A DNA stretch of 63,887 nucleotides, the filler included, from Dimargaris cristalligena (Eukaryota): the NCBI GenBank assembly GCA_003614675.1. It is 11 parts of 11 records of this genome, joined end to end, with 100 filler letters (N's around TTAATTAATTAA, not from the genome) between each part and the next. Parts side by side here need not be neighbours in the genome. Positions count along the whole stretch, not along the records: positions 53,577 to 59,372 come from ML003579.1; 10 more parts are not named here. The stretch is one strand, 5' to 3'. A model generated the notes under the pieces. The model worked only from the letters and a program-made list of their open reading frames with translations, did no database searches and had not been told where the DNA came from. The position numbers and the translations under genes are program-made. Positions 31 to 63,887 of the stretch are shown here, in pieces. Each line of letters starts with the position of its first letter. The first letter of the stretch is position 1.

Positions 31-994
31 GTAGCCAACCCTTCCACCCCCCACAAATTCAAACTAAGTAAATGAAAGTAAAACAAATAGGAATAGTGGT
101 AATAAAATAATTAATAATAAAACTGGGTAAAAGGTTAATTGTCAGTATTATCTGGTGAAGTTAAAACATATATTTATTTATTTATCTTGAAACTAACTTG
201 TCCCTTCAACTGAGGGGATACTACTAAGATATATATAAGAAATCGACCAAACTAAATAACTATAGCTAAGAGCAAAGCTGCAATAATTGTGGGTCATAAA
301 AAACCTAAAAATAGGGGGAAAATTGACCTACTGGCTATACTATGGTTATGAATAAGTTAAAGGGAAGTAAAATATAGAAATTGGAAGGTTGGAAGACACA
401 GTCTTTCCAGTCCTCCTTCATATTGGATATTGATAAAACCAAGAAAAGGAATTCATGCTAAGAAGTTGTATGGCGTGATTCCAAGAAGGAATCCACCGGA
501 GGCTAGTTATTTCCAAGCCCTACTCATAAAGGATCATCAATAGCATAAAAGTAGTGATATGAGGTGGTCAATTGTCATGGTTTTAAAGTCATTATTGATT
601 TCAATGACCTATAACTTTGTCAATAATAGATGGAAAGGCAAATGGAAATATGATTTGGAAAGCTGAAGGAAAAGAGAATCAGCTAAAATAAAGAAATAAA
701 ATAACACTCTTAGCTCTGGACTGTTCCCATGGAAATAACTTGTCAATCATCTGGGGACCTTGAATCCATCCAAAGTATGACTACTTCTTGGATTAATAAT
801 GTGTACTGGGGCTTACATGGCCTCTGCCCAACTGTCCATGGCAGCACAGTAGCATATATATATATACTAAAACTATACATAAAGAAATTGTGTATAACTA
901 GAGATGCAGGTAACTTTAACCTCCAAGATGTGGCAATAGGTATATTCACGCCAACTGAAGAGTAGGAAGTGTGGGGGGTGGAAGGGTTGGCTAC

Positions 995-1207
995 CTATTT
1001 CTTAGCATCATGGCTCTTACAGTAGGCCCCAATACCCTTTTTGGTAACATACCAACTAGCCCCCGCAGCAGCAGCCTTGGTTGAAAATGAACAGAAACCA
1101 TGCTTGGTGAGCTGCTGGGAAGTAGTGGATTCAGCAGGGTTAGCTTGAGCCATGCCAGCAGTAGTAATGATGGCCAGGATGAGAGCAGTGGCAGACAAAA
1201 CCTTCAT
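995..1207 (-). CDS. Small secreted prepro-peptide (70 aa) with a Lys-rich C-terminal segment
   Basis: MKVLSATALILAIITTAGMAQA is a classical signal peptide ending AQA. It is followed by a short pro-like region and a 34-aa segment with 6 Lys and 2 Cys. Confidence 0.7.
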   Translation of the reverse strand: MKVLSATALILAIITTAGMAQANPAESTTSQQLTKHGFCSFSTKAAAAGASWYVTKKGIGAYCKSHDAKK

Positions 1208-1228
1208 GGTATACAGTGGTATTAGGAT

Positions 1229-1452
1229 TGTTGAAGAATATGTTCCTACATGTTCTTTATCCTATCCTATTTTCATCCAATTACATTAGTTTATTCTACT
1301 ATCATGAGATCATTCATATTAGCCACTTACATTTCACCCCACAGAAAATTACAGTTCAATAAAACTAACCACCTAGAGGCACCTACTGTCCTCTAGCTGC
1401 TTTCTTCCCTTCCTTCCAGTTTTATTTCCTTTAAGTCCTTAGTATTTCAACA
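1229..1452 (+). mobile_element. Solo LTR, family A (Ty1/copia-like ends), copy 1
   Basis: TGTTGAA...TTCAACA termini, internal AATAAA, 5-bp TSD AGGAT (1224-1228 and 1453-1457). Three further copies in the window. Confidence 0.9.
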
Positions 1453-3629
1453 AGGATGTGGGTGGGTTGGGAAGTGATGGAAAAGGATAATATTCAGTTG
1501 CTAAAGACAAACTGTTTGGGAAAGCGAGTAGGAGGGGATGATTATGTAGATAAGTGGACTTATTTGACAAAAGTAGGGAGCAGCTAGTGTAGTATTTATA
1601 CACAGGGGAATAGAAGTAAATGACTTCTGATGGCCACTCATTTTATAAGGAAGGACTTTATTTCTGCAGATATAGTAGTCGGAATACCAACTTATTGAAC
1701 AGCACTGGCCAGCCCAGTATATCTGGCAGCAAGTTTTGGTCCAATCTATTGAAGAATGCATCAACCACTTATCACAAATGTGGTGCAGGTTGATTAAATG
1801 GACACCCTTGGCCTCGTATCTATTTTTGGGATATTATTATTCCCTCTAAGTAGCACAGCTTGTAATTTTAGTGGTGGACCTTAACCGTGGCTAGTTCATA
1901 AACCCTGTATTTATTTGTGAAGTACGCCACTCAAATCTGAGATCTTAGCCAGCATCAGCCTCGTTTCTAGCACCCCTGCCTAGTGTACTGCTTTGCCACT
2001 TCCCCTTTCATTTGGTGCCATAAGTTTGACATTAGCCAATACTAAACTCCGAGCCCACTAAAAGGAAAGGTTCTATAGACAGGCCTGTTTAGCTATTAAT
2101 GAGTATTTTGCCTAATATGCTGTTGTGCTTGTCCAAACCAACTGTCCCCCTTAGTATTCATCAAATTGGTGTGAATTCTTGATTTTTCAAAAATATATCA
2201 AGGACAAGGGGGCGTGCAAGGAAAGAGGAGCAATTCGGCTAAAATTCGATCCCAACAACTCGTGAAGGGCCTTCGCTGGTGGCATTGGAACCAAAATTTA
2301 AAGAGGAAGAGCCGGAGGGGTTCTAGGGTTGTCGGAAACTAGCCACAGCGCCTGTGTCTCTAACACAATATGGGTGGTGCTCACCATGGATTGGGGGCAC
2401 AGTACCCTTGCAAACCTACTTTTGGATGACTCGAACTCATTGCCGCCTCCTATGGCGTACTTTAATTTTTTTACCACCTGATATCTGGCTTTACAGTTGG
2501 ATTTTCCTGCCGATATTATAAACGTGAAACATTTTTCTGAGTGAAGTTAATAATAGTGAGGACTCAAAAAACTCAATAGTAATTGCTTGACCACTAGAAA
2601 TCCCTTGGTGGCCGGGTCAACTAGGTCCATATGGTCAGTATCACAATTGTAGACGGCTTAAATGACCCCCTGAGGCTATTAAATACCGTGTCTACTAATA
2701 ACAGGGTGACCAGCCAGCTAGTACTTATTGGCAATGGGGGAGGGGGAGATACTTAATGGCAATGGGCGTAAAAGGGGGTGAGTAAATGAAGTATCGTTAG
2801 GGATACCATTATTGATTATAAACTCCTACCAACGATCAATCCAACAAAACTAATGTTTTGCTTGCTTTTATCCTGCCAATGTCTATTCTGGCATTTTCCA
2901 TCCTATCGATACTATGATATACTCTTGCAATTATTTATTTATTGATATATTTCCAACGAGTCCATTCACCATAGCTTTAGTTGGCAACCCTTTTGTACCT
3001 CATTTCATAGAACGATTGGCGTTTCTATACTACTCAAATTTGCTCATAAAATATGCTGGAGTTCTATGAGGGAAATATAGTAGTAGTCTACCCATTGAAT
3101 TTTGTATTTGGCGAATATTATTTTCTACTGGTAATTCCCAAGTGCTTCAAAAACTGTTATTATTTGTTTCCTATGGTCATACCCATTGTCTACCATGAGC
3201 TCCGGCACCTCCAAATCCAGAGTGTCTGTGTCCTTGGCCATTCCCGTACCAGTTGGCTGGGGACCCTCCATTGTGGTTTCTAAACATCCTGAGAAGGAAG
3301 CCAAGATCATTTCGCAGATTCATAAGACTAGTATATTGAGAGTAGAGCCACCCAGAACTGCATATACAAGGGACATACATGACTTTAAACCCATATACCA
3401 CAGGCATTGTAGATAATGCTTAGTGGACTACAATATATTTTCAGACTGCCTATTCATCCTGTACAATTCCTCATTGATGGAGGAGCAGTTGCCACAGGTC
3501 TTAAGCTACTACAATAGTTACTGATATTTGGCCGAAATTTGGGGTTTTATTGGGGATAATGAGTAAGATTGGTATACCATGTGCAAGGTCTTTTACTCTC
3601 TTCAAATAGTCAGAGGGTAACCACAGCAA

Positions 3630-4758
3630 TCACAAATGAATAGTCTTTCCATTACATTTTCGCATATGTATCTTGAAAGAGTTGGCTGATGATAATGTCT
3701 TCCCGCAATTACCACATGTATAAGGGTTCTTCTCGGTGTGTAATCGTGTATATGTCTTGAGATAGCTAGCCGATAAAAATGCCTCTCCGCAATTATCACA
3801 TGTATAAGGATTATCCTCAAAATGTACTACCATGTGTTTCTTAAGATACGTAGGTAGTGAAAATGAGCCTCCGCAATGCACACAGGTATAGGGCTTCCCA
3901 TCGGTGTGAACATGCATGTGTCTCTTGAGATATCTAGTTGCCAAAAATGTCCTCCCACAAATTTCGCAGGCATATGGCTTCTCCCCAGTGTGTGATAGCA
4001 TATGCCTATTAAGATGACATTGCGTTGGAAATGGCTTTCCACAAACCTCGCAAGTGTGAGACTTCGCTTGTAAATGTGGTCCTAAATGAGATTCAAAACC
4101 TCTCTGGGCCGTGTGAGTTTGCAAAATGCCCATGGGTGTAAGGCATCTTATTGTTGTGCATTACCATGTCCTTGCCATTAAAAATGGAATCGGTAGGCCT
4201 GGGTAGTCCACGACAATGACTACTAGAATCCGATTCCAGTAATTGCCTTACCTGCCACCAGAGCGGACTGCCACCCAATGCCAACACACTTGCAACAGCA
4301 GGGTCCCAATCCATACCGGGTAGATTGTTGGCAAGCCTTGAGTCTAAAGGGACATTCTCCCCCTCGCTACCAGTGGCTACTATACCAAGTAGATCACCCT
4401 CTGAATAGGGATAAGAATCGGCTGGCGCAAGTTGATTGCCGACCTTATCTAAATCATGCCACTGTTCAGGACTTAGGTGCTCCAGGGTATCATTGCCACC
4501 CATGGTCTGTTCGAGTTGGTTAATAAATTGGCCTAGTCCATTGTTGTCTAATTGATTTATACAATGTAATATCTCCGATAAAGGCAGGTTATTGGCAGGG
4601 GGTCCTGGAATTGTGTTAGTGGCTACGCCATCAATGTTAAACTGGGGATCATGGGCATAGAGAATTGATTTTTTCTGTTCAGGTTCCGAATCATTTGCTT
4701 CAGAGGTACGGGCGAGGGAGAGCAAAGCCAGAAGTCCAGCGGTTTTGATTGCACTCAT
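3630..4758 (-). CDS. Signal-peptide protein joined to a C2H2 zinc-finger array (5 fingers, 4th degenerate); probable exons 4758-4165 and 4103-3630
   Basis: ORF 4093-4758 starts MSAIKTAGLLALLSLARTSEA. ORF 3630-4133 has CxxC...HxxxH fingers with HTGEKPY-type linkers. A 61-nt GTAATG...CTCAC...CCCAG intron (4164-4104) would join them in frame (355 aa); a frameshift is the alternative. Confidence 0.65.
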
Positions 4759-5165
4759 TCTAGGATAGCTGTATAAAAGTAGGCAGGTATAGCAAAGGAC
4801 AAGGGAGTGTCAGCTAAGACAAAAATGAGAATAGACCAGCACACAGCTTTAATTAGCAATGGAGTTACAAATTTGCTGGTTTGACTTTTTTTTTTGCTTT
4901 TATATTAAATAGTAAGGTGGATAATGAAACCTTGAAAATACTCAACAAAAAGTTCATAGGAGGAGATGGTAGCTGATTGTAGGGAGACTAACATTTATAA
5001 ATATGGTTTGTATGTGGATACAGATGAAACTCACCATATTGACATATAAAGGCTACTTCTAGGTGCCACATTGGTATACTGTGTACCATAAAGTACACCC
5101 CTGACTTAGTAATAGGGTGTATATACCAGCTACATTGTAGAACAAAGCTTAAGCAGTTGCATTTC

Positions 5166-5716
5166 TGTTGGAATATTAAGGACATAAAGAAAATAAAACT
5201 GGAAGTAAGGGAAAAAAGCAGCTAGAGGACAGTAGGTATCTCTAGGTGGTAAGTTTTATTGAACTGTAATTTTAATGGGGTGAAACATAAGTGGCTAACA
5301 TAAATAATCTCATGATAGTGCAACCAAGGGGAAATTCCAACCTGAATAATCAGGAGGATGGCCAACCCAATCATACCCTTCTTCAGGAGGATAACCCACT
5401 GATGTACATGGGGGTCCAATCTACCCCCCTAATGGAGGAGGACAACCCTCTCCCATTGACATAAGAACTACACCCTGCCCCAGAGGGATAAAACCAGCCA
5501 CCCACCCAGCAGACTAGGATTTTGTGTCTTTAAATAAAATACTATTATTCACTAATATACCTGCAGTTATTTTGCATTAACCCTGCTCCACTTGGCTCCA
5601 TTTTCCTCACCCTTCATCCTGCCCTACTTGGCACTAGGTTACAATAGCAGAATAAACTAACATAATTAGGTGAAATAGGATAGGATAAAGAACATGTAGG
5701 AACATATTCTTCAGCA
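5166..5716 (-). mobile_element. Solo LTR, family A, copy 2, interrupted by a family B solo LTR
   Basis: Reverse-complement match to 1229-1452 in two pieces (5166-5318, 5644-5716); TSD ATTTC at 5161-5165 and 5717-5721. Confidence 0.9.
5319..5643 (+). mobile_element. Solo LTR, family B (diverged relative of the Gypsy LTR at 53664)
   Basis: TGCAACC...GGTTACA ends. Shares the ...CCAGAGG(G/A)ATAAAACC and TGTGTCTTT(A/C)AATAAAATACT blocks with the full-length LTR. 4-bp TSD ATAG (5315-5318 and 5644-5647). Confidence 0.9.
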
Positions 5717-48590: not shown

Positions 48591-50118
48591 TTACTTGCGT
48601 TTGGGGGCTTCGCGGACGTAGGGGACGAATTCCACACCACCCATATAGGGCTGCAGAACCTTGGGGATATTAAGGCCCTCGGGGGTCTGGTAGTTCTCCA
48701 ACAGGCAGCACATGGTACGCTCGGTGGCACACAGCGTCGAGTTCAGGCAGTGGACGTAACGCTTCTCCCGGTCACCCATTTTCTTGGTACCACAGCGGAT
48801 CTCGAGCCGGCGGCTCTGGTAGTCGGTACAGTTGGAGCAGCTAACCAGCTCCTTGTATTCGCCCTGGAAGGGGAACCAGGCCTCTAAATCGTACTTCTTG
48901 GCGGCGGCGTTGTTGAGGGCCCCTGACACAATGGACACGACGCGGTAGGAGAAGCCCAGGGACTTGAAGAATTCCTCGCTGGTGGCGATCATTTCGTCGA
49001 ACATTTCCCAACTCTTCTCGGGCTCGGTAAGGACAAACTGTTCAATCTTTTCGAACTGGTGGACCCGGAAGATTCCCCAGGTGTCTTTGCCGTGGGCACC
49101 GGCCTCCTTACGGAAACAGGTGGAGTAACCAGCGTAACTAATGAAGTGGGGGGAAAGGCAGCCGATGTTGCAGTACCAGGGCATAAAAATATGTGGTGGA
49201 GAAGGTGGGTTAGTACGATGATCAAAATAATGTCCGCGGTTCCAATACCAGAATGGCTGACATCAGAATCCTTTATCAGCGTTTTCCCAACATGCTTAAC
49301 TGTTCGATAGAGTAAAGTGGCAGGGCTTACCGGAGGGGCAGTTGCTTCTCGGGTTGTTCGAACCACTCGTTGGAGTGGAAGGCGGAGATGGGTTGTTCGG
49401 AAGTGGCGATCAGGTACTTGTCGTCGCTATCACCGGTCACCTTGTAGAGCTCCTCGTCGAACTGATCCAGCTGGGCGGTCTTAGCCATGACCTCCTTGCG
49501 CATAAAGAAGGGGGTCTGGAGCTTCTTATAGCCCTTGGCGCCCAAGAAGTTGAGGCCGTACATAATCAAGGCCAGGTTCAGGTCCACCCCGACGTTGGTG
49601 AGGAAATAACCGCGGTGGCCGGCGATGTTGGCACCGCGCTCGGCATCGAAACCATCCAGGCGGTGGAGCACCTCGTGGTGGGACAGAATATCGGTGCGCT
49701 TCTGGGGGGCCTCACCGGTGGGGGACCATTGGCGCATGATTTCGTTGTTGGCTTCGTCCATGCTCACGGGCACGGACTCGTGAACCAAGTTACCGATCTG
49801 GGACACCAGCTGCTTGAGGACCTCCTCCTTGTCCTTCTCCTCGCCACCCAGGGCCGTCTTCCGGTCCTGCACGGTCGTTTTTTCGGCGATGAGTTCGGCG
49901 GGATCCTCCTTCTTCTTCATACGCATGCCGATCTCCTTTTGGATTTTGTTGATGGCCTTGTTGAGCTGGTCCAGGTCGAAGCGGGAGGTCTTCCACTCTT
50001 CGTACTTGGCGATGACCTCGTCGACGGCCTCGACGGAGGCGCCGCGACGACGCTGGGATTCGCGAATCAGCTCGGGGTTACCACCCTTTTCGGATTGAAA
50101 TAGGTTAAGGTCCAACAT
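48591..50118 (-). CDS. SES1: Cytosolic seryl-tRNA synthetase; exons 50118-49331 and 49137-48591
   Basis: [56 protein letters not shown]...TAG intron keeps the frame. Confidence 0.97.
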
Positions 50119-52260
50119 GGCGCACTGGAGGGTCGTAAGAGAGATAATGGATAGAGGCAAGGGGAAATGGGAGGGTTAAGATGGAAGCAAAACCAAGTAT
50201 AATTGACGAACGGTAATAGGTAAGCGCAAGGGGGAAGCCGAGCCAGCAAGAACTGATATTATGGAAAACTCGACACTGATATTTTTTGCCCAAAGAATGT
50301 GTGTCCGTTTCTTTACCCAGCACAGCGGTTTGTGTATCAAATCAAGGCTAGGTGTGGTTTATACAGCTACAACACACTGGAGGAGCAACCTCTCTCAACG
50401 CCTTGGGATGCTTTAAAATTGGTGTGTCACTACTACTACTACTACTGGCCAACCACACAAGAAAAAGTCGCAGGTGGGTAAATAATTACTGGGTGGGACA
50501 TCCAAAATAGTCGGACTCCCTGGCTGACAGCAGCTACCCAGACTGTGCAATTCCCCTCTCCCCTAGTCACTCAATCCAGCAGCCTGAGCGGAATGGGAGG
50601 GCACTTCCCAAATGAACTAGTCTTGTGCTTGGCTATTCCTTCATTGTCCCCTCCTCTCCATCCCAACTGTTGTATATCTATATAATATCCCCGCGTTGTC
50701 CTGTCCAGTATGGCCACTCCCGAAACCAGCTCACTCCCCACCCGGTGGGCCTTCCACACCGCCACCCAGTCCTTCATGAGCACCCCGTACCATTTCCTAG
50801 TTGGTCGGTTAAGGGCCACCGAAGCCGGGAAAGAAGGTCCTCTCTGGGTATGGGTCGGGTCTTCCGAAGCCGCCTTACATAACCTGGCCTTATCGTTTCC
50901 GAGTCGCCTACCTTCGCAGACACCCAGTGCCACCCAGCTGCTCGGCAACCCCGATAATGACCGTGGCTACCTGATTTCTGTCCGTCTTGGTAAGTTCTCC
51001 GTAATGATGATATTATACCAGGCTGGGCATGGAGCTAATTTAGCTGAACAACTGCCATTTACCGTATGATTAAACATACTCGCTTATACTGAATCCTTTG
51101 CCCTCTTTTATATAATCATTTATGGGAACCCATCCTCCCTAGCCAAACGATTCAATAGGCCTTGTTTCGTCAGCTTCCACGGCTCCCCAGGCAACCAACC
51201 CGATCTTGACTTTTTCTTAGAAAAGACCCTTATTGAAGTGCTGCGACAATTTATTGCCTAATTATATAACCTTATCATTAAAGTGGTGTGGTGGTACTGG
51301 ATGGTTTCTTGGAGTAGGGAGGGATCGAATTCAGCCGACTTTTAATTTTATTTTGCGAATTGGAGGGTTTGTTATCCTCATGGCCACCATTTCCCCCCAA
51401 GTAATACTCACCCAGTGGATATGGGGGGAAGTCGCCTAGAATATATGGAATGTACATATTTGGACCCATTGGATTTGTGTTCCATCTTTTGTTCCGCACT
51501 GTCGTAGGGTTGGCCAAGGTCTATGGATGTATCATGTGACTGCGGCATATTAACCAAGGTAAATATCATAAATAAGTCTTAAAGAAGGAGGAGCCCTAAG
51601 AAGGGAAATGGAGCAAGGCCCCCTTACAATGCTATTACTGTGGCATGCCAGAGCCCGCCTAGGAGTGTTGCTTATAGTGATCCAGGTTGTAGACCTAACG
51701 AGAGACTCCCAAACCCACATTGAGGGTGCTAAAGAGCTCCAAAGATTTAGAGTCAAACAATATACCCATCCCACCTTGAGTGTCACTTTGGGATACCATC
51801 GGGAGGCAAACCCGCTGATATTCACCGTAGGTCATCATAATGTTAGTTTCTGGTTTTGCTCTTCTAGAGCTGCGGTGTTTAAACAATCCGCTATAATGCG
51901 ACCTTTGGTCGTTTATTTATTGTAGTTCCGAAGCAATCAAACTACCAACCTTATCGGCAAATCCACCTCGGGTTAAACAGACCAGCCTTCACAATGTGCC
52001 TATTGTGGCTCTATAACAACGGCCAACCAATCAGAGAAGGACCTACTGCATTATTTTATTCTAGTGACCCGTCTCAATAATTACAATATATACCCAGAGA
52101 CTCCGCTTCTTACAATTTGGCACTACTAAATAGCCCATGGTCAATTGGTAATACGCGGCTTGGCCTCTTCACTAACACAAGCTCCATATACCCCCCTCGA
52201 ATTATTTACCACTATATTTCCACCACAAAGCACTTTAAAACCGTACGCGAACTGCAACAC

Positions 52261-53346
52261 ATGGCGGACTCTACGAACGATTCTGGTTCGGCGCCACTCT
52301 CCAACTTGTCCGGGGAGGAATTCCTGGCCTGGATTCTTCACCCCTCTCAGCAACACATCGGCAAGTTGGTCATTCAGCGCCTCGACAACCAGGACCAGTT
52401 CAACCTGGCCAGTACATGTCACGCTCTCCGCCCCCTTGTCGCGGCGACTTACGAACTTTCCTTTGAAATCCCCACTGATATTTCAAAATACGACTGTATG
52501 GAGCGGTTTATCGAGCGTCACCGCCCTAAAGTTCGGCACCTTCATATTCAGACCCCGCCGGAGATCCCGTTGCTCTGGATAGTTGGCACCCGATTCCTAT
52601 TTAAATCAATTGTTGCTTCGACCCACCTTACGCTATCCCTTGAGCACGTTACCCACTGGCCTATCCTCGCCGACTGTTTAACCAGCTTCGGCTCTCCACT
52701 TCAGGAACTGTCGGTCCATTTTAACGGATCTAGTTCGTGGCGAAATGACTATCACCAATTCCAAACTCCTCTCATATCGCCTGAGACCACTGCTGCCTTA
52801 AGTCAAATCAAATCGCTTGGTATTCACACACATGCTGTAGTATTTGATATTATATACATGGATTGGTTATTGGAGCCATTTACTGGTATTCAGCGACTTG
52901 GTTTGGACTTGCCGCGGTCCGACTATAATATTCCGCAAATAAGTCTCGATTACTTTCGGCATTTAACTCATGTGTCCATTACCTCTGCGACCTGCAATAT
53001 TCCCCGCATGATTTCCGATAGCCAGGATAATCTAAGCCGATTGATATCTCTTACATTCAGTTGTAATTTGGGCATGAATAACAATGGTATAACCACAATA
53101 CCCGCAGTCAACTTTCCAAACTTGAAAAACTTGACCATGTGCTTGGATTATGGGCATTCTAGGTTAAGTTACGACCAGCAATTTGCTTTGTTGATGTTTT
53201 TTGGCCAATATTGGCCTTCTGTTACCACACTAACTATAACTGGTGGTGGCCTACCGGGCCAAATTGCAACAGCTATTATTTGTAATTTTCCGAATCTCCG
53301 GGATTCGTCATCAATGGAAATAACCAGGATCGCCGCGCGTGACTAA
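52261..53346 (+). CDS. Divergent F-box-like/leucine-rich-repeat protein; 3' end uncertain
   Basis: IGKLVIQRLDNQDQFNLASTCHALRPL resembles an F-box. Repeated LxxLxL units follow (LQELSV, IKSLGI, LTHVSI, FPNLKNLTM, FPNLR). Confidence 0.6.
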   Translation: MADSTNDSGSAPLSNLSGEEFLAWILHPSQQHIGKLVIQRLDNQDQFNLASTCHALRPLVAATYELSFEIPTDISKYDCMERFIERHRPKVRHLHIQTPPEIPLLWIVGTRFLFKSIVASTHLTLSLEHVTHWPILADCLTSFGSPLQELSVHFNGSSSWRNDYHQFQTPLISPETTAALSQIKSLGIHTHAVVFDIIYMDWLLEPFTGIQRLGLDLPRSDYNIPQISLDYFRHLTHVSITSATCNIPRMISDSQDNLSRLISLTFSCNLGMNNNGITTIPAVNFPNLKNLTMCLDYGHSRLSYDQQFALLMFFGQYWPSVTTLTITGGGLPGQIATAIICNFPNLRDSSSMEITRIAARD

Positions 53347-53663
53347 ACGTATGTATGTGTACTGACATGGGTCGGGATGGATTATCCTCTCCACAAGACA
53401 AACTAGTCGCGACCTTCGTCATGTGATCCCTGCGCATCCTACAGTTACACCCTTGCAGGAGTATTCGGAAGACCTANNNNNNNNNNNNNNNNNNNNNNNN
53501 NNNNNNNNNNNNNNNNNNNNTTAATTAATTAANNNNNNNNNNNNNNNNNNNNNNNNNNNNNNNNNNNNNNNNNNNNGGGAAGGGAGTTCCCAGATAATAG
53601 TATTAGTCATCACAAAGGATAGGTAATACTCGGGTAACCGATAAATTCAATGTGAAACAATAG

Positions 53664-54009
53664 TGCAACCGGGGGAGGCCACCCCCACTCAAAGACAAGA
53701 GGTCGATCCTCCTCACAGTACCCCCCGACTAAGCGAGGAAGACCACATGAGTCATGACATGGATCATTCGACCCCCCCACAGGAAGAGAATGGCCTTCCC
53801 CTAACGGCACAAGAACAACACCTCATCCCAGAGGAATAAAACCCATTGCCTGAGCAGCCCACCATTATTCTGTGTCTTTCAATAAAATACTTATAATTAT
53901 ATTATGCCTACGAGCTCTATTTTACCTGTTTGGTTATTTATGCCCTACTCAGTGATTGTTAGTTATTTTATCATCTTATTTCCGGCCCCACTCGGCCTGC
54001 TCGGTTACA
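53664..54009 (+). repeat. 5' LTR
   Basis: Direct repeat of 58949-59294; AATAAA at 53835 and 53881. Confidence 0.97.
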
Positions 54010-54013
54010 AACT

Positions 54014-54027
54014 TTTTATTGAAAGAC
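54014..54027 (+). promoter_or_regulatory. Putative self-priming primer-binding site
   Basis: TTTTATTGAAAGAC is the exact reverse complement of LTR 53874-53887 (GTCTTTCAATAAAA). No TGG tRNA-type PBS follows the LTR. Confidence 0.7.
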
Positions 54028-54031
54028 CTAA

Positions 54032-54886
54032 ATGTCTACCCAACAACACCTAAGCAGCCCCCCTCAGGCCATCCAGCATGGGCTACCATCAGGTGCCCTA
54101 GACACCCTCCTCAAGAACGTCAAACCCTTTACAGGAAAACCACCGGGTCCCACTTGGGAATCATGGACGACTTCCCTCACAGCCACCATTGAGGACTACT
54201 ACCCTCAGATGAGCACTGGAGCCCGGTTCCGACTGAAGATTGCACTCCTTCAGGATGATATACGTGACCTCATCATCAAGTCCGGTAAGGACACCACAGA
54301 ACACTTCGAGCCATTCATGACAACCACCTACCTGACTTCTCTGTGGGCAGATTACTACGACACTGCGCTACACTCGGGGACCCTCTTTAAGGGCAAGAAC
54401 ATTCATGTCGCCTGTTCCATTGCTTCGGATGCCGCCTGGCAACTGGGGGGCACCAGCCACTGGTGTACCCAGGTTACAAAGGCACTGCTGGCCGAGTTCC
54501 ACATGGACCTAGAACAAGCCCCCCACGAACTCTGGAACTTTATGGAGTATACTGCAGGGGAGATGGATGAGCACTTCAAATCTATTACCCAAGCAGTTTT
54601 GGCTAGCCAAGCCCGTCAGGCCGCCTTACGTACTGCACCAGGCCAAGGCCCACTAGGCCAAGAAAGTCGAGGGCAGCCAGCTAGTGGCACTAGGGACACC
54701 GGACCTACAACCATAGAATCAATCGTGGCCGCAGTTCTCGCCACCATGAAAGAAGAAACTCCCAACCCCAGTAATCGTGGTAAAGCACGTCGCCGAAAGG
54801 ATCGTCAGGCCAAGATTATGGCAGATCTTCAGGCCGAGGTCAAGCACCTACACCAGCAAGTCAATGATAAGCCGGGAAAAGCATAG
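54032..54886 (+). CDS. gag: Retrotransposon Gag-like protein (284 aa)
   Basis: First ORF after the 5' LTR; VKPFTG...WESW capsid-like start; basic C-terminal patch; no CCHC knuckle seen. Confidence 0.8.
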   Translation: MSTQQHLSSPPQAIQHGLPSGALDTLLKNVKPFTGKPPGPTWESWTTSLTATIEDYYPQMSTGARFRLKIALLQDDIRDLIIKSGKDTTEHFEPFMTTTYLTSLWADYYDTALHSGTLFKGKNIHVACSIASDAAWQLGGTSHWCTQVTKALLAEFHMDLEQAPHELWNFMEYTAGEMDEHFKSITQAVLASQARQAALRTAPGQGPLGQESRGQPASGTRDTGPTTIESIVAAVLATMKEETPNPSNRGKARRRKDRQAKIMADLQAEVKHLHQQVNDKPGKA

Positions 54887-57800
54887 AGGTGGTGAGGGAT
54901 CCCTCTGTACTAGCCGCAATTGTCACTAATAAAACTAGTACTCATACCCTTACCACCAAAGACACACAATCTCATTGGAGACTACTACGGGATGCCACCC
55001 TGGGTGGAGTTCAACTCAAAGCAGCAGCAGATCAAGGCGCAGCAACTAGTGTGATCACCCGAGAGGCAGCCAGCCGCCTACACCTTAAGATCGATCAGCG
55101 GCTAAGACCCCACCTACGAGCCTTCGGGGGACATAGTTATGCCCCAACCCTAGGGACCACCCGGGCCCGATTTGCAACAACTGAATCCCCTAAGAAACGA
55201 TGGATTAGATTCACCGTAATTGAAGCCCACACTGATATTGATGCCCTAATCGGCCGTCATGACCTAGATTCCTTGGACCTCGACCTTATCACCTCATGGG
55301 GTCAGGCAGTTACCCGACAAGCCTCCCCTCTGTCAGCCCCACTAGAAACACCTCAAGTTACCCAAAGGGAAACCCTGGAGCTGAGAGGACTCCCATCTGA
55401 CACCTTTCAGCGGATTGACCCAGCATCCGACCGGGAATTCCAAGCGGCAAATAACCAGTACCCATTACCCACTCGTCAGAGCATTCAATCCCGAGTAGTG
55501 GAGCAACTGGAAGACCAACAAACCAAAACTCAACTACTTGATGAGCTTATGACAGGGCTCCTGGCACTTCGGGAATACCCACCAAGTTGCCCACCACCTT
55601 GCCTACTCACCCCAATATCCCCACCCCTAAGGCATAATGCAAAACTCCTTTTTATCCCACAGGCCCCCCGGAGTCGGGCAGACCGGGAGTTCATGGACAA
55701 GTATATCAAAACCCGTCTCCAGTATGGGGTAGATGAGCCCGGATTTGCCCACGCCAATCTACCTGTGTACAGCCTACCAAAGCCAAATACTGATGCTCGA
55801 CTGGTCATTCTAGATGATAGCTAAGGGAGTACTATCAATATGCACTCCCTCGGAATGCAACTCCCTAGGCTCCATGAGGTACGGGGATTTGTCAATGATG
55901 CTAAGATCATCACCAGCGTTGATCTAGCCTCCTACTTCACACAAATTAGGTTAGCTCCCGAAGTCCGAGATTTCTGGACCTTTGAGGGTGGATCCAATGG
56001 TCGAGTACGTGCAGCACGGCTAGTCCAAGGCAACAGTCAGAGCCCAGCTATTGTGCATGCCCTTCTACTACATGTATTCAATGATATCCCTAGTCTCCGG
56101 GGTCGCCTCTTAGGGTATATCGATAATATATACTTAAAAAGTACTAGTGGTGATGTCCAAAGTCATATTCATGATATTGGTGCACTCATCCGGGGACTTG
56201 CCTCTTGGGGCCTCACTGTAAACCTATCTAAAAGTGAGTTTGCTGGTACCAGAAATGTAGAGATTCTGGGCTATCGTTGGTCACAGAAAAATACCTGGAC
56301 AATTCCAGATCACCGGATTGCAGACCTCCAACAGCTACCTATGCTTAGGACTGTCAAGGACATCCAGCGACTAACTGGTGGTGTCAATGCCATCTCAGCA
56401 CACCTCCCATGGGCAGCTGCACTATTAGCCCCATTTTATGCCCTCACTGGGCTTCGTCGTTTAAACAACACCCATCTGGTGGACCTCAAACCACATTGGG
56501 ATGATCTCAAGGAAGCCCTCCTAGATACGAAGCACCTGTATGAACCACGGCTGGGTGAACCTCTTACACTATGGGTAGATGCTGCTGAGGCAGGAGTAGG
56601 AGCAGTGCTACTTGCCCATCCTAAGGATCAGGGAGACAGGGTAGTCGCATACTTTAGCAAGGCCTTTGATGGACAACAAGGCCAGCGGCATCCCGGGTTC
56701 CGTGAAGCCTGGGGACTAGTGAGGGCAGCTCGGCATTTTTATACATATCTGGATGGTACCATTAACCTCCGGATTGAAGTCGATGCTACTACAGCACTGG
56801 GTATTTTCAACCACAAAGATACATGCCAGGCTGATGAATTAGCAGGCTTCCGTGCTGAACTCGCAAAGCTAGGAATTCATTCCAACATGATATACCATCG
56901 TCCTGGTGAGACTCACCTCACTGCTGACTGGCTATCCCAGGCCCTTCATCGCCAGAGACTATGCAAGCCTACCAAACGTACAGTAGCCACATTAGCAGCC
57001 ATGGAACTTGCCAGCAATGATCCAACCAGTAGCAGTGACGGGGGAGAGGCAGTACACATCTCTCTTACCTCCGATGATGAAGATGATGATGATCCAGAAT
57101 CAGGTACCACCCAACACCTGGGTGAGTCTACAATCATAGCATCCCTGCCCAACACCTGGCACTGGTCAATAACCCCAGAGGACCAAAAAGGCGACACCCA
57201 ACTTGCAAATTGGCACCAGCTCTGCCAGCGACGTGATGTGGAGATTGGTAATGACGATCCATTATTCACCGAGGTTAATGGGATGTCTATTCACAACGGA
57301 CTCCTCTGTCAAATAACCCCAGGTGTATTGGCCGGTACAATGGGGAGTTGGGTCCCCTTAATTCCAACGGCTATGCTGAAGGACACAATCATAAACTGGC
57401 ATAAAGAGCTTTGCCATCCTGGCCAGGAACGGCTACTAGCTTTTGCCCAAACCCGCCTTGCTCACTCGGCCCTGCGAGAGACCATCGATCGGTGTACTAG
57501 GACCTGTCACACTTGTCAGATAAATGCAATAGCCACCATTCGGAACACCCCGCGGTCAACTACATATGGCAACCGAAAACCAGGTGAGCACCTTTACCTT
57601 GATCTTGGTTACATCGGTCAAGTAGGGTCTGATGAGGAGACCCAATTTCTCATTATTGCCGATGCCACTAGCCGGTTTTACCAAGCCATACCACTGGTAC
57701 AATCAACAGCTGCAGATATCATAGAAGGCCTACGTGATGGCTGGATCGGGACCTATGGGAAACTACGTATGATCACTACTGACAATGGCCCACAATTCAC

Positions 57801-59124
57801 TGCCGAAACTCTTCAAACCTATCTTGAGGGCCAAGGGATCCGGCATATATTCTCCTCCCGTAGTCACCCTATCTCAGAATTGGCTGAGCGATATGTCGGG
57901 CTACTAAAGAACTCCCTCCGGAAGTGTTGGAGCCAACATGGTACTGATGACAGCTGGATTCAGTATCTTCCCAGAATCACAGCAGCACACGCAATTATCC
58001 CAGACCCACATACAGGTATCTCACCATGGATGGCCCTCAAAGGCATCGAATCAACCGTAAATACATCCCAACTGGTACTCCACCCGGATACTGATCAGGG
58101 AGTAGAGGGAGTTGCACAATGGGCTATAAACCAAGCCAAGGAACGACGGTCACGAATGCGAAAACTAGCCATGGAAAGGCATAACCAGCATGTTACCCGG
58201 AGGTGTTACATCACCGGAGAACTAGTCACCATTAAGGTGATACCAAAGCCGGCTAACCTGGCCAGTCGACCAGAGCGCAGGATGGGCCCATTCCGAGTCT
58301 TGGAGAGAGCCGGTCTGTCCTACTGATTAGCTAACCTCGATGGAAGTCCCCGGCCCCGAAACGTTCATGGTGACCTCCTCCTCCCATATTACATTAATGA
58401 TGATGAACATGATACTCATTTAGAGGAGACGGTGGCTAATTCAATTGAGCCAATACTGATATCTATACCTAATATCCAAGGAGAAGTTCAGAGTCAAGCC
58501 ACGGGGAATGAAGAAGGCCAAGTACAAACCAGGGCGGACACAAGCGGCGAAGATCAGGACCAGGAGACTACTGGATTAAACACCTCGCCTATAGGTGCAC
58601 AACTCCCGGTAGATAACTCACAGGAGGATTATGATAGTGACTATGGTAGCGATTATGACGACTCTGAAGATGAGGAGGACCAGGAATTAACATCCGAGTC
58701 GGACTCGGGAATACTATCAGATGCTCAACCAGAATGGCCACCACTACACATATATAGCCATGGCACCAAGAGACAAGCTTCTCGGTCACCCCCGCAGGCC
58801 AAAGCATCCCGAACAGACCATAAAAGGCTACGCGAACCATCTAGCCCCACTCTGCGAGCATTCCCCCACCTCCGGGAGAAACTAGACTGGGACACCCGAG
58901 AAACGGATGCCACAAACTCCGAGGACGAGCAGTTGCCCTGGAGTATTGTGCAACCGGGGGAGGCCACCCCCACTCAAAGACAAGAGGTTGATCCTCCTCA
59001 CAGTACCCCCCGACTAAGCGAGGAAGACCACATGAGTCATGACATGGATCATTCGACCCCCCCACAGGAAGAGAATGGCCTTCCCCTAATGGCACAAGAA
59101 CAACACCTCATCCCAGAGGAATAA
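54874..59124 (+). pseudogene. pol: pol (protease-RT-RNase H-integrase-acidic tail): one frame broken by TAA 55822-55824 and TGA 58324-58326
   Basis: ORFs 54889, 55840 and 58432 share a frame. Motifs: ADQGA...LIG (PR), VDLASYFTQ/QG/YIDN (RT), VDAAEAGVGAVL...ADWLS (RH), H-H-C-C, D-D(TDNGPQF)-E and GPF (IN). Confidence 0.92.
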
Positions 59125-59294
59125 AACCCATTGCCTGAGCAGCCCACCATTATTCTGTGTCTTTCAATAAAATACTTATAATTATATTATGCCTATGAGC
59201 TCTATTTTACCTGTTTGGTTATTTACGCCCTACTCGGTGATTGTTAGTTATTTTATCATCTTATTTCCGGCCCCACTCGGCCTGCTCGGTTACA
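58949..59294 (+). repeat. 3' LTR (first 176 nt overlap the pol frame)
   Basis: Direct repeat of 53664-54009. Confidence 0.97.
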
Positions 59295-59968
59295 ATAGAA
59301 GGGATAAAAAGAAAGGGAGAAAGCTATTGTTAGCTATTCTTTGAACAGGGGTGCAGTCGGGCCAGGGGCAGTNNNNNNNNNNNNNNNNNNNNNNNNNNNN
59401 NNNNNNNNNNNNNNNNTTAATTAATTAANNNNNNNNNNNNNNNNNNNNNNNNNNNNNNNNNNNNNNNNNNNNGTGTGGACTGCTTTCTCGATTGGTAGAA
59501 CTTGTCTTAATAAAATGTCTTTTCGCTTTACAGCTGGGCCGAGTTTCACACACATGATTTTTATTTATAAGGTCGTTTTCTTGCTATACAAGCCAGTAGA
59601 GCCTCCTCAACCTTTGGCTTTTAATTTGTAATCTCATTTCTCGATTATCACCCGTCGTTCCACCTAAAGCAGGACTTTGTGTATGCAATGTCCGTAATTC
59701 CGAAACATGCTCACTATCTATTGCAGAAACGGCTCGGAAACACCCTATTAACTACAATATTAAAAATAATTTACTAATACGCCAAGTACGCCCATCAAAT
59801 GACGGTAAGATATTGCTAGCAACGAAAATCACATAGACCATAATGCTGGTATTGTTGGCACTATCACCCCAAATATAGCCACCGGAATTAATATATATAT
59901 ACATATATATATATAGCTAAAAATAACACCGTCAGTTGGGATGAAGCAGTCCTAACTAAAGTGGTGAC

Positions 59969-62698
59969 CTATAACCTACTCAGCTTGGGGGGTGTCTCCT
60001 CATCAGGCTCGGTAGCCACCGGCATGTATTCGCCCCGAGTGTCTTTGGCCGACAATTTCTTAGAGCGCCGCCAGCTCCAACCCAAGGCCACCACGGACAA
60101 CACCGCCCCGACTCCCAGGACCACTAGGAGCCAATGGGGGTTCGTTGAACGCAGCAGATCGTTACCGTCGTCGTTGTCGTTGGGTCCCTGGCTGTTGTCT
60201 TCACCCTCGTCCCCTTCGTAGGGCTGATGCACTCGGGCCACTAGGGCCACTTTTTGGGGCTCTCCACTGATTTCCTCGAATAGCACAACATCGTTCGTCT
60301 GGCCCGGTGGGCTGAGCCAGTCTTTCGGTACGTGGTAGTAGCGCTGGGAAGGTAAGCCGCAATCCTTGCGGCATTTGCGATCGGGGTTGAACCACCCGGC
60401 GTAGTCGCACGATTGGCAGCGGCCCGAGTCGGGGGATTCTCCGGGGATAAGCCAATAGCGGCCAATATGGTGCCCGTTCACCAGGGCAAACCCTTTGGTC
60501 ATGGAGTTGAGGTCGAGGGCCAGAGGGGGTAAGTGTGCCCAGTCCGTCGTTTCCGCAAAAGTGAATTCCAGTCGGTGCCACGCGAGACTGGCCCCCGTGT
60601 ACTGGGCCACGAGGGTGGGATCGCTGGTGCGGGCGTTCCAGCGGTAGCTGTGGCCCATCCGGTCCGGCTGGGGGTGGGGTGAGGAAGGGGACTGTCGTAC
60701 ATCCACCACCGTGGCTGGATCATTGGTGCCCACCACTGGGTTTTTCTTTTCCCCGCGTAACCCCACCGAGTGGCCCCAGCCCGAATTGGTAATGTCGCGG
60801 TTATCCAGCTGTACGGTACCTAGTATACCCCGGTGGTATTCCTCCATACGTTTCTCCCCGTTGGTCCAGCCCATGGTGACAAGCAAAATCTGGAGGGAGT
60901 GGGTGCCGGGGGTGTCGGCAAGCGGCGCCCGACCCAGATCAAAGCGGGTCCATTCCGACCCGCGTTCCAAACCCACAAGGTTTCCATCGACGAACACCAC
61001 AACCATCTCGTACACTTTAGTCAGGACGAGTTGGCGCGGGGCCGGGTGTTTGTCATCCACCTCAAAGTCTGTAACGTACCACAGGTAGTCGGTGTCGTCG
61101 TTGGTCAGAGAGAGTTGTTCTAGCGGCCGGATGTTTTGGTGTGGGCAGGCGTCCCGATTGGCCGGAATGGATTCCAAGGCAGTAACAACATCTGGGTGGT
61201 CGAGATAGGGCCGGTTAGTTTGAGGGTAGGTAAGCACCTTGAAACCCAGTTGGGAAGTCGGGTAATTCGGGTCGATACGCGACGACGTGTACAGCCAGCG
61301 CGGATGAGGGTGACCCCCCGATAAAATAACCACCGACCAACGGGGCACCGTGACGTCCAAGCCCAGGAAATTGAGTCGGGCCCGCTGGGTTTCATCTTCG
61401 TTAGTGAGGAAGATGATACTGCGGGAGTCTTGGGGGTCCCCATACACATAAGCCTCCTGTTTGGGGCCCAGTCTTAAAGGCCGGGCCACTTCATGACGGA
61501 GGAGGGCATCCTGGTACTTGAACATCAGCTCATGGAGGCGCTGGAGGTGGTGGTACTTGGGGTACCGTTCCAGACCGTACTCGTCCAGCATGACGTCGTA
61601 GTCGTAGGTGGTGGTCACCATTGGCCCGGACGTGCGGCCGAAATTGGTCCCGCCGTGCCACATGTAGTAGGCGTGGTAACTGCCCCCGGACGCGAACCAA
61701 CGGGCCACAGAATAAGCAATGTCCTGGACGGGGCGGGTGGGGCGGGCCTCGCCCCAGCGCTGGAACCACCCGGGCCAGTTTTCGGTCCACATGCCCGGGT
61801 AGTCGGGGAACTTGTGGAAGAAGTCCTTCAGGTAGTGGTGGCAGTAGAAATCATTGTGGGTAGGAATGACGTGGGGCACGTCCGACCACTGGCGGCACAT
61901 GATCCACGGTACCGTTGAGTTCATGCGGTGGGCCAATTCGCCGCACCAGGTGGCGAACCTATTGCCATCCTCGCCGTACATCCACTGGTAGTTACCGTAC
62001 TCGTTCTCGATTTGCATCATAATGACGGGCCCGCCCCGCTCGGGCATATACGGAGCCGCCACCTCCACGAGTTTACGTACGTAACGTTCCATTTCCCGCT
62101 TGAATGGTTCGTTCCAGGTCCGGAATTGGATCCCCGGAATGAGCCGTAGCCAATCAGGGAATCCCCCGTACTGCCATTCCGAGCACACATAAGGGCCCAG
62201 GCGCAGATTGACGTACAAGCCATGTTCCCGGGCCAACCGGAGAAAGAGGGGCAAGTTGCGGCTCCCGGTACTGAAATCCCATTCGCCGCGGACGGGTTCA
62301 TGCTGGTTCCAGAACACGTACGTTTCGATAATATTGATGCCCGCGGCCTTGCTCTTGCGCATGAGCGCCGGCCACATGCTGGGCGTGCTGCGGGGGTAAT
62401 GGATACAGCCGGCCATGAGGATGGTCGGCTGGTCGTTGATGAGAATGGCTCGGTGGGCCACCCCCACTTTATAGGGGCCGGTGGGATAGGCAGGCATGAA
62501 CCCCGCGGGAATGCCAACGGCCACCGGCGGGGGAGTAGTGCTGAAGCCCTGCGGGCCGCCGTTATTCACCAAGTATAGTGCCGCGCCGGCGAATAGGAGC
62601 AAGGTGGCACCCACAGCTATGGGGAGGGTCCGGGGAGAGGTCCGGTCTGGCTTAGGGGTACCCCGGTCACCGTGGGCGCGCCAGAGGGTGAACATCAT
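59969..62698 (-). CDS. Glycoside hydrolase family 35 beta-galactosidase (909 aa, intronless) with N- and C-terminal hydrophobic segments
   Basis: IHYPRS, IETYVFWNQHEP, QIENEYG (acid/base), WTENWPGWF (nucleophile), YYMWHGGTNFG, YDYD..LDEYG, GRYW, SQRYYHVP. Confidence 0.95.
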   Translation of the reverse strand: MMFTLWRAHGDRGTPKPDRTSPRTLPIAVGATLLLFAGAALYLVNNGGPQGFSTTPPPVAVGIPAGFMPAYPTGPYKVGVAHRAILINDQPTILMAGCIHYPRSTPSMWPALMRKSKAAGINIIETYVFWNQHEPVRGEWDFSTGSRNLPLFLRLAREHGLYVNLRLGPYVCSEWQYGGFPDWLRLIPGIQFRTWNEPFKREMERYVRKLVEVAAPYMPERGGPVIMMQIENEYGNYQWMYGEDGNRFATWCGELAHRMNSTVPWIMCRQWSDVPHVIPTHNDFYCHHYLKDFFHKFPDYPGMWTENWPGWFQRWGEARPTRPVQDIAYSVARWFASGGSYHAYYMWHGGTNFGRTSGPMVTTTYDYDVMLDEYGLERYPKYHHLQRLHELMFKYQDALLRHEVARPLRLGPKQEAYVYGDPQDSRSIIFLTNEDETQRARLNFLGLDVTVPRWSVVILSGGHPHPRWLYTSSRIDPNYPTSQLGFKVLTYPQTNRPYLDHPDVVTALESIPANRDACPHQNIRPLEQLSLTNDDTDYLWYVTDFEVDDKHPAPRQLVLTKVYEMVVVFVDGNLVGLERGSEWTRFDLGRAPLADTPGTHSLQILLVTMGWTNGEKRMEEYHRGILGTVQLDNRDITNSGWGHSVGLRGEKKNPVVGTNDPATVVDVRQSPSSPHPQPDRMGHSYRWNARTSDPTLVAQYTGASLAWHRLEFTFAETTDWAHLPPLALDLNSMTKGFALVNGHHIGRYWLIPGESPDSGRCQSCDYAGWFNPDRKCRKDCGLPSQRYYHVPKDWLSPPGQTNDVVLFEEISGEPQKVALVARVHQPYEGDEGEDNSQGPNDNDDGNDLLRSTNPHWLLVVLGVGAVLSVVALGWSWRRSKKLSAKDTRGEYMPVATEPDEETPPKLSRL

Positions 62699-63887
62699 AT
62701 CGCACAGAGGAGAGGGTACTTAAAAAATAGCAAATGATGTTGGTTTATAGCTTCTGGCTAACCCAGACTATCAAAAACTATTTCAGTTACTTGTAAAATA
62801 GACAAAACGAAGACAACTGGTGATACGTTTAGAAGTATTAAAGGTGTGTCGGAGTATCATGCCCCAATGGTAAACATACGGGGCTATGTGTGGGTGTTAC
62901 TGGGTGGTTTTAACTGAGAATCAAATAACCCAGGGAAAAAGTGCAGAAATGAAACATGGAATAATTATAGGGGCGATGGCCGGCTATGCACTATATACAA
63001 GAAACCTGCTATATCACGATATTCTTGTAGACACAACTTCCGTGTCTCTGGAAGATCAGAAAGGGTGAGTGATATACACAAGTCACACGACGTCGAACCC
63101 CAGAACAAGCCCTCTAATAGGAAACATGCAATATACCATTTAGGGCGGGGCGTGAGATTAATGTTGTCAAGGAGGTAGGCAAGGAACACGTCGACAAGCG
63201 ATTGTCCACCATAGCCAGGGGGGCCGGTTTTTAATATCGCCGTTAGCGGCTGTCATGCCCATTATATGAAACCGCCGCTGACTCCTGCTAATTTCCCCTG
63301 CCGGGCATACTGAAGTAGGGCTGGGCAATGGTGAGCTGGCAATAGGCTTGGTGCATTGTGTTTAAGTGTCGTATTGAATGGCCAACCCGGGGCCGCATCC
63401 AGATGTGCACTAACCAATACACAATCTTACTCATCCCACCTCGTATTTCTTGTATATGATGTGTTCAGCTTTAAACTTGGCCTGCAAAATTAGCAACGTT
63501 TATGAGGGGTTGAAATATAGTACCGGAGCCGGTACTATGCCACTGGTCCGGGACTGATACACCCGGAAGTGTTTGGTTAAACTTAATCAGCGTGGTTGTT
63601 TACTTATTATCATAGGCCAATACCGCAGATATTACTGAATTCCCCGTATAACGCGCGGATGATACTATATCGCTGGACTTATAGTTGGAAATGTAAATCA
63701 TTCAGCAAATGACTTACTAATCCCTGCTTGCAGGTGATATGTGGGAAATCGACCAGGTCATTTTATAGTGGCTGAGGCCATTCCCATTCGACGTGCATCC
63801 GTGTGGGGCGGCCCATGTGATAGGTAAGGGTAGTTAGTCACACCACCACCCCGCTCACTACTCGTTCTAGAATCATAATGAGGTCTA

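Follow-up and report, generated by a model that had tools for sequence, protein, structure and literature searches.

A low-copy Ty3/Gypsy-like family of the fungus Dimargaris cristalligena was found to extend its Pol reading frame across the polypurine tract (PPT) position and into the U3 region of the 3' LTR. The overlap is a trait of the family, being present in the full-length relatives L002, L003 and L005 and in subfamilies B and C, with the full-length evidence coming from one genome. The family represents a recently active, Gypsy-like lineage that has probably remained unnamed. The copy on which the analysis centers lies in a stretch of 63,887 nucleotides (hereafter, the window), a string of ~5.9-kb contigs with N/TTAATTAATTAA spacers, in which contigs on either side of a spacer are not genomic neighbors. 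The element fills one of them (G000:C1372), leaving a flank of <90 nt per side, and is organized as follows.

53660..53663, +: left target-site duplication (TSD) ATAG, with a second ATAG copy at 59295-59298
53664..54009, +: 5' LTR, TGCAACC...GGTTACA, 346 bp
53874..53887, +: predicted 14-nt self-primer (RNA 5' end), with AATAAA inside; 14/14 complementary to the PBS
54010..54027, +: 4-nt spacer AACT and 14-nt self-PBS (54014-54027), from the LTR-PBS pairing
54032..54886, +: ORF of 284 aa in gag position; open frame, no Pfam match
54871..59124, +: pol frame, PR-RT-RH-IN-tail, broken in the window copy by stops at 55822 and 58324
54874..54880, +: -1 slippery heptamer GGGAAAA directly upstream of the gag stop; conserved junction
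55030..55038, +: protease motif DQG, replacing DTG/DSG (Pfam Asp_protease_2, E 2.6e-4)
56116..56127, +: RT motif YIDN, replacing YxDD, lineage-wide
56575..56937, +: RNase H domain (VDAA, REAWG, EVDAT, ADWLS), from Pfam and motifs
57400..58392, +: integrase with HHCC, DDE core and GPF/SH3-like domain, the GPF itself lying at 58282-58293; the window copy is cut here by the stop at 58324
58393..58761, +: acidic, disordered, variable tail (pN/pS 0.64-0.69; pLDDT under 50)
58762..58884, +: conserved block KR-x16-basic cluster-SPTLxAFPHLR, a candidate bipartite NLS with a short helix (omega 0.10-0.11)
58916..58948, +: PPT position, with a candidate hairpin (58916-58944) and the invariant 13-mer CCCTGGAGTATTG (58936-58948), from the junction comparison
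58949..59124, +: U3 segment in the Pol frame, 176 nt with the TAA, from frame and alignment
58949..59294, +: 3' LTR, whose ends (left TGCAACC, right TGTAACC) form an inverted repeat that is imperfect
59119..59126, +: A/T box at the TATA position, containing the Pol stop; the self-primer copy at 59159 is 37 nt past the stop

The two LTRs of the window copy, 346 bp each, differ by 5 mismatches and are flanked by ATAG on both sides. The element displays the Ty3/Gypsy pol order PR-RT-RH-IN and TG...CA LTRs with a TSD, and its pol matches the Gypsy-type Pfam profiles PF17917, PF17919 and PF17921. It is best explained as a recent insertion, already decayed, of a low-copy Ty3/Gypsy-like family in a kickxellomycotine-type fungus. 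A second acidic insert (SDDEDDDD) occupies the RH-IN linker at 57030-57110 and is longer in subfamily B. Elsewhere in the window, positions 5417-5543 hold an old fragment of the same LTR family (~70% identical). A 421-codon ORF at 52081-53346, which has a weak LRR_4 match (E 0.014), is presumably F-box/LRR-like, and judging by their motifs we take 48591-50175 to be a seryl-tRNA synthetase host gene and 59969-62719 a GH35 beta-galactosidase host gene. Four repeats of 84 nt span 3660-3995, a period which we assume to be that of a C2H2 zinc-finger array.

The Pol frame in the 3' LTR

The first-pass annotation of this DNA described a D/E/S-rich frame of ~265 codons (58327-59124) continuing from Pol, beyond the GPF module, into the 3' LTR. 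The size and phase of this frame were borne out, as were its acidic character (E, D and S making up 32% of the 265 codons), its passage across the LTR boundary at 58949 with 176 nt inside the 3' LTR, and its end at a TAA (59122-59124) within GAATAAAA. Its continuity with Pol in the window copy was not: a TGA (58324-58326) precedes the frame and a TAA (55822-55824) interrupts RT, and because of these two stops the window copy is unable to make the tail as part of Pol. Nor does the frame lie wholly beyond the GPF module, since its first 22 codons (58327-58392) still belong to the GPF/SH3-like domain, forming strands with pLDDT 70-78 in an alignment-based model and matching PF22938 in 3/9 members of the tail alignment; the remaining 244 aa make up a low-complexity tail.

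That a stop codon precedes the frame might suggest that it is a small ORF in its own right, or that it is open merely by chance in an element that is dead, a reading to which we attach next to no weight and which the open Pol of the relatives refutes. In all four relatives in which an open frame spans the region starting from the IN core (L002, L003, L005 and L007), it is continuous with Pol; its first ATG comes only late, and the stop at 58324 falls inside the SH3-like domain. A search of the genome DNA for the element yielded 46 matches. Among them, the full-length copies L002, L003 and L005, ~70-72% identical to the window copy at the DNA level, have Pol frames open over 1450, 1419 and 1413 codons and LTR pairs that are 100%, 99.7% and 99.3% identical, respectively. 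None of these intact relatives stops at 58324 or ahead of the LTR; all three are open into U3. The tail is also open in the partial copies L007 and L019, and all five copies stop at a TAA in the same U3 position. The distant subfamilies B (L115; 51-72% identity in Pol segments) and C (L114; 58%) read 42 and 37 codons into the LTR, respectively. Several other loci are worth recording. L133 and L114, a 5' and a 3' end located on separate contigs, have the flank GGGG in common and are probably one subfamily C element split by assembly. Other Gypsy-like families of the genome (L118, L119 and L120) have single ORFs of 1851-1963 codons, the stop of L120 abutting a TGT that may be an LTR start, and the public gene model P0071 consists of a fragment of the element family fused to an unrelated long host protein.

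In six diverged group-A copies, the U3 segment is free of stops in the Pol frame (0/6), while each of the other five frames contains a stop in 6/6; the open Pol frame across U3 thus exceeds chance. Among solo LTRs, which are near-copies of one another and not independent, 34/39 were open for at least 30 codons in the Pol frame, against 21/39 and 4/39 in the other frames. Selection was assessed from pS and pN/pS, both obtained by pairwise counts, in four copies (six for the tail), copies with stops (L004, L006, L016, L116 and L117) being excluded. Compared to RT, RH and IN, in which pS was 0.73-0.80 and pN/pS 0.07-0.13, the U3 segment had a pS of 0.50 and a pN/pS of 0.52 (0.38-0.74) or 0.65 (0.51-0.83). 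In an alignment built in the Pol frame, pN/pS was 0.65 in that frame vs 0.77 in the +1 frame. Differences were distributed over the three codon positions with little periodicity (0.36/0.33/0.40). U3 is thus constrained as nucleotide sequence and as an open frame, its residues being little constrained. The dual use of U3 proposed in the first-pass annotation holds in this sense: the frame is conserved in 6/6 diverged copies, but selection on the amino acids is weak.

The two ends of the LTR differ in a fixed manner. Right ends read TGT in 59/60 cases (TGTAA in 42) and left ends TGC in 65/66 and TGT in 0/66. This asymmetry keeps Pol open, because a perfect inverted repeat would place TAA as the first whole codon of the LTR. 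An integrase preference could be an alternative cause of the asymmetry, and the missing TGT left ends of solo LTRs are weak evidence when taken alone because CpA decay is slow (4/221 sites). In the deep relative L184, Pol terminates at the very first LTR codon, and this one locus suggests that Pol ended ancestrally at the LTR edge and that the read-through into U3 is derived.

Priming of the minus and plus strands

The 14-nt PBS pairs perfectly with an LTR 14-mer in 7/7 copies bearing six different primer sequences. Self-priming, another trait noted in the first pass, is thereby backed by a covarying 14-bp duplex. The spacer between LTR and PBS is AACT, or AAACT in subfamily C. In predicted folds of the leader the central duplex was recovered in 5/5 cases, the flanking duplexes being variable (cf. 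the three-duplex 'pretzel' of Tf1/sushi). The Pol stop lies 37-39 nt ahead of the 14-mer in 5/6 LTR types, and subfamily B has TATAAAA at the position of the A/T box, with the Pol stop inside it; both the distance and this TATAAAA support reading the box as a promoter. The group-A box is a poor TATA (GAGTAAAA, GGATAAAA, GACTAATA). AATAAA, a conserved LTR motif by the account in PMC3601003, lies inside the self-primer in 7/7 copies, and the self-primer of L184 runs into AATAAA; the 5' poly(A) signal could thereby be masked when self-primer and PBS pair. The other two replication traits singled out in the first pass likewise recur, CCG GGA AAA being identical in 6/6 copies with the same -1 frameshift junction and the DQG protease motif being conserved in the family. 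L184, a complete deep relative (1-5223; ~60% GC) with 186-bp LTRs and a low-complexity tail, has a 12-bp self-PBS, a 2-nt spacer and CCCTTTT before its gag stop (a -1-type junction); neither a PPT nor a matching TSD was found in it, and its 3' LTR opens with the three nucleotides of the Pol stop TGA.

The same annotation had reported the lack of a PPT before the 3' LTR, and we concur. The last 17 nt read GTTGCCCTGGAGTATTG, and within the final 45 nt purine runs reach a length of 5 at most in the window copy and only 5-7 across 9/9 junctions. What occupies the PPT position is nonetheless constrained at the nucleotide level. Eight group-A junctions carry CCCTGGAGTATTG without any difference, and the 20 nt that straddle the boundary between PPT position and LTR form the sole identical run of at least 12 nt in the Pol of five copies, in which just 18/299 invariant degenerate residues use the same codon. 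Furthermore, four subfamilies have GRGT(A/T)TTN|TG in common, where it encodes PWSI, PEGF, RAGI and PESI; because the encoded amino acids differ among the four, the signal resides in the nucleotides. In the 6/6 group-A copies that are not grossly decayed, every pair of a 10-bp hairpin whose end lies 4-5 nt short of the LTR is kept, through G-U wobbles and one two-sided change; the pairing is broken in two decayed copies. The hairpin's z-scores are modest, ranging from -2.1 to +0.6 in these six copies, and subfamilies B, C and D fold differently. Three other leads were discarded: a displaced PPT, the longest internal purine runs occurring at differing places among copies; pairing of U5 with the 40 nt before the LTR, which ranked 50-179 of ~500 windows; and three one-mismatch matches to the 15-nt junction pattern, which proved to be unrelated DNA.

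Of the earlier claim that plus-strand priming is non-canonical, the missing PPT and the constrained junction stand, but a minimal PPT would also fit. On this reading, priming would be conventional and the short GGAG/GAGGG/GGG core would be a minimal PPT limited by the coding overlap, with no new mechanism involved. The PPT of Ty1 also includes pyrimidines. A G-rich core of 3-5 purines is found in all four subfamilies (GGCGGGA in L184), and the PPTs described for CRM elements in PMC3059260 measure 4-13 bp. Against it, five mostly pyrimidine nucleotides separate the core from the LTR, the last 15 nt before the LTR contain only 6-7 purines, and the invariance extends to the pyrimidines CCCT and TATT. 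We regard this conventional reading as possible but doubtful. We consider priming at the GRGT core itself quite likely, and a role of the hairpin possible, though somewhat less likely than not.

The integrase tail and the choice of insertion sites

Conservation along the tail is uneven. Its variable acidic part has a pN/pS of 0.64-0.69. The block at 58762-58884, in contrast, has a pN/pS of 0.22-0.29 and an omega of 0.10-0.11 at a pS of 0.65-0.72, and these 41 codons upstream of the LTR are under protein-level selection. The spacing from KR to FPHL is 30 aa in the 7/7 copies of subfamilies A, B and C with a match to each of the two motifs; in subfamily D, KR and SPTLEAFPHL are retained but the linker between them is shorter, and KRPAS (KRxAS) is kept in protein P0030 of Dimargaris xerosporica. 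Deep relatives (L184, P0057 and P0059) lack the block. In an alignment-based model, it forms one helix (pLDDT ~60) within an otherwise disordered tail; a single-sequence model of the tail was unusable (pLDDT 36). Pfam yielded no Chromo match in 9/9 tails and no match of any kind for the tail of the window copy, Foldseek found no match to the tail structure at E 0.001, and Atlas gave no usable match. The first-pass proposal of a targeting module in place of a chromodomain is upheld as to the missing chromodomain but is not supported in the form given: the acidic and U3-coded parts are poorly conserved (pN/pS 0.5-0.7), and the conserved module is the basic/helical 41-codon block ahead of the LTR. 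The most direct reading of the block from its sequence is a bipartite NLS, which we deem likely; a targeting role is only plausible.

As to where the elements insert, 46 LTRs were taken as solo on the basis of motifs only; a 4-bp TSD is exact in 35 of them, has one mismatch in six and is missing in five; TSDs of 5 or 6 bp occur in 0. The ATAG listed earlier among the traits of the element is not a fixed target, family TSDs being 4 bp of variable sequence. Integration yields these 4-bp TSDs with a weak preference for the form NTAN (26/42). Targeting of tRNA genes was rejected, ARAGORN detecting a tRNA gene in 1/60 loci, as was targeting of promoters, the nearest ORF end being 5' in five and 3' in eight of the 13 insertions with an ORF in range. 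Flanks without a gene-like ORF were found for 28/41 insertions vs 241/573 intergenic controls (Fisher p 0.002), in a comparison in which controls overlap and were taken beside insertions, some flanks are short and introns are ignored. Other repeats were shared by the flanks of 14/39 insertions vs 14/141 control windows. CpG observed/expected is 0.48-0.53 in the elements, 0.62 in the CpG-poor insertion flanks and 0.88-0.91 in two host genes, and in a set of four near-identical LTRs, 7/8 of the positions that vary show C/T or G/A differences. The ORF-poor, repeat-sharing flanks fit either tethering to silenced DNA or post-insertion selection.

The tail may alternatively serve only nuclear import and cis-interactions between RT and IN, insertion being untargeted, the ORF-poor distribution a product of selection, and the read-through into U3 a tolerated by-product in which a stop at the att site is avoided but the U3 peptide has no function. 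The weak triplet periodicity of U3, the lack of a U3 peptide common to the subfamilies, the resemblance of the block to a bipartite NLS, the absence of a bias toward tRNA genes or toward either gene end (5 vs 8 of 13) and the stop of L184 at the LTR edge all agree with this proposal. It accounts less readily for a frame that is open to the same stop in 6/6 diverged copies, for U3 pN/pS intervals that lie below 1 (0.38-0.74 and 0.51-0.83), and for the SPTLxAFPHLR helix, which is situated outside the basic clusters and yet is the best-kept motif, subfamily D included. On balance, we consider a tail confined to import and cis-interactions unlikely.

Lineage, working model and comparison with known elements

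YIDN or YVDN is found in all relatives that cover the site, including the family itself, proteins of Coemansia, the metagenomic P0057, P0059 and P0196, and L184. The closest named relatives are the Coemansia proteins (41-50% identity) and one D. xerosporica protein (49%), all others reaching at most 31%; from a representative library came full Pols at 29% identity and dozens of fragments, most of them short, at 34-79%, and scans of IMG/VR returned no relatives. The best match to a solved structure is Ty3 Gag-Pol (E 6.7e-21). In maximum-likelihood RT-RH trees of 141, 62 and 36 rows, unrooted and built without an outgroup, curated references or short fragments and with few named anchors, 11-16 YxDN rows form one clade (SH-aLRT 99-100), the longest branch of the trees, which falls outside the chromovirus clade (SH-aLRT 96-100) under both LG+G4 and LG+C20. 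P0175 also carries YVDN and sits outside the YxDN clade; the change thus arose more than once. Because the YxDD consensus of RT is lacking, the family is filed as Gypsy-like in no named clade. The identical LTRs and open frames of L002 make YIDN, DQG and the missing PPT compatible with recent activity. The literature covered, mainly the main texts of open papers, yielded no description of the lineage for Gypsy elements of Kickxellomycotina, Coemansia, Dimargaris or Zoopagomycota, nor in work on missing PPTs or on Ylt1 and novel clades, and no association of YIDN with Gypsy, YVDN being mentioned only for Bel/Pao. As far as searched, the combination of a missing PPT, a YxDN RT, a 14-nt self-primer, the att asymmetry and the 41-codon block appears undescribed.

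The family could instead be a fast-evolving Tf1/sushi chromovirus that lost its chromodomain, acquired a tail in its place as CRM did, and underwent erosion of its PPT, in which case there would be no separate lineage. Self-priming is a hallmark of Tf1/sushi in the accounts of PMC10085805 and PMC6317226, the branches are long, and an AU test did not reject a single clade of the YxDN family and chromoviruses (p 0.237). The trees nevertheless keep the YxDN rows (SH-aLRT 99-100) outside the chromovirus clade; the 4-bp TSD, YxDN, -1 frameshift and 14-nt primer also speak against such an origin, and self-priming arose in the Copia TAR lineage as well, according to PMC6317226. A Tf1/sushi descent thus strikes us as improbable.

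We propose a working model for the YxDN family in which, as a whole, we place moderate confidence. Transcription would start ~37-39 nt past the U3 A/T box, and the first 14 nt of the RNA would pair with the PBS, as their covariation indicates, and prime the minus strand without a tRNA. Pol would be made through a -1 shift at GGGAAAA and would read the plus-strand priming region and 110-175 nt of the 3' U3, with its stop in the TATA-position box or shortly ahead of it; translation of the open frame would provide integrase with a disordered tail of 170-260 aa. The working part of this tail would be the selected 41-codon block, in which a short helix beside the NLS may bind a host protein; that the helix acts as a chromatin tether, by analogy with the Ty1 tail, is a tentative suggestion. 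The acidic and U3-coded parts would chiefly act as a spacer, needed only as an uninterrupted frame. Rather than at a purine tract, the plus strand would be primed at the short GRGT-core element, which ends ~4 nt short of the LTR and so matches the 4-nt AACT spacer at the opposite end. A more ambitious joint reading, which we consider speculative and rather unlikely in its entirety, would posit a deep, unnamed YxDN-RT lineage of Kickxellomycotina and unidentified eukaryotes that uses neither a tRNA nor a purine tract. In it, the poly(A) signal would be masked by a 12-14 nt self-primer, and the plus-strand primer, defined by structure, would lie within the integrase coding sequence, yielding cDNA ends with 4-nt extensions; in the window family, one asymmetric base of the left att would keep Pol open over U3, and a helical tail motif would take over from a chromodomain in tethering integration to chromatin that is silenced and poor in genes.

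To our knowledge, LTR retroelements are taken to have, almost without exception, a purine-rich plus-strand primer and YxDD, both of which are scored by LTR-finding tools. A recently active family devoid of a PPT and of YxDD is a natural system in which to study primer choice by RNase H and the role of the second aspartate. Any tail function is narrowed down to a 41-codon block that is testable on its own, and the CRM-type overlap of integrase and U3 arose independently in fungi. Each trait has a precedent, and what is new is their combination in a probably unnamed lineage rather than a new kind of element.

The U3 overlap and non-chromodomain tail are already known from CRM group A, and a disordered NLS tail from Ty1. 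In CRM group A as described in PMC3059260, Pol extends into the 3' LTR and includes a putative targeting region other than a chromodomain; Pol of Reina Bingo1-4 and 7 likewise extends into the 3' LTR and ends in such a region by the account in PMC3605345. As in CRM group A, Pol of the present family passes the PPT position into the 3' LTR and its integrase ends in a non-chromodomain tail. CRM elements, however, are described with a tRNA-Met PBS, a conserved PPT and a 5-bp TSD, whereas the family is self-primed and has no PPT and a 4-bp TSD; their CR motif is LTR-encoded, whereas the conserved motif of the family lies upstream of the LTR; and in RT-RH trees the family RT is placed apart from plant chromoviruses. 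Tf1/sushi, Tcn1 and TAR elements are known to be self-primed (described in PMC6317226, PMC7175516, PMC4600332 and PMC10085805). Like Tf1/Tf2, Tj1 and other Tf1/sushi elements, the family inhabits a fungal host and pairs the 5' end of its RNA with the PBS, but its primer comprises 14 nt with a 4-nt spacer, compared to the 11 nt given for Tf1 in PMC7175516. The chromodomain, PPT and 5-bp TSD attributed to Tf1/sushi in PMC10085805 and PMC4600332 are absent in the family, which has YIDN and a -1 frameshift unlike Tf1/sushi. The Ty1 (Copia) integrase tail is described as disordered, with a bipartite NLS and a targeting motif in the NLS linker (PMC7459421, PMC9673352). The family tail resembles it in being long and disordered, with a candidate bipartite NLS and a short motif, a likeness of architecture only; Ty1 belongs to another superfamily and targets tRNA genes, which were found at only 1/60 loci of the family. 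YxDN is reported in intact nematode Bel/Pao elements (Cer7-12, Atlas) in PMC554778 and bioRxiv 10.1101/2021.11.23.469668, the former leaving open the catalytic competence of YVDN. Although Bel/Pao shares YxDN, the best Pfam and PDB matches of the family are Gypsy-type and no Bel/Pao-specific Pfam family matched at E 0.1; the shared YxDN is likely convergence. Finally, Ylt1 and SN_1006 represent non-chromoviral fungal Gypsy clades without a chromodomain (PMC2864245, PMC3248453); compared by description, in which the distinctive traits of the family find no mention, they share with it a fungal host and the lack of a chromodomain.
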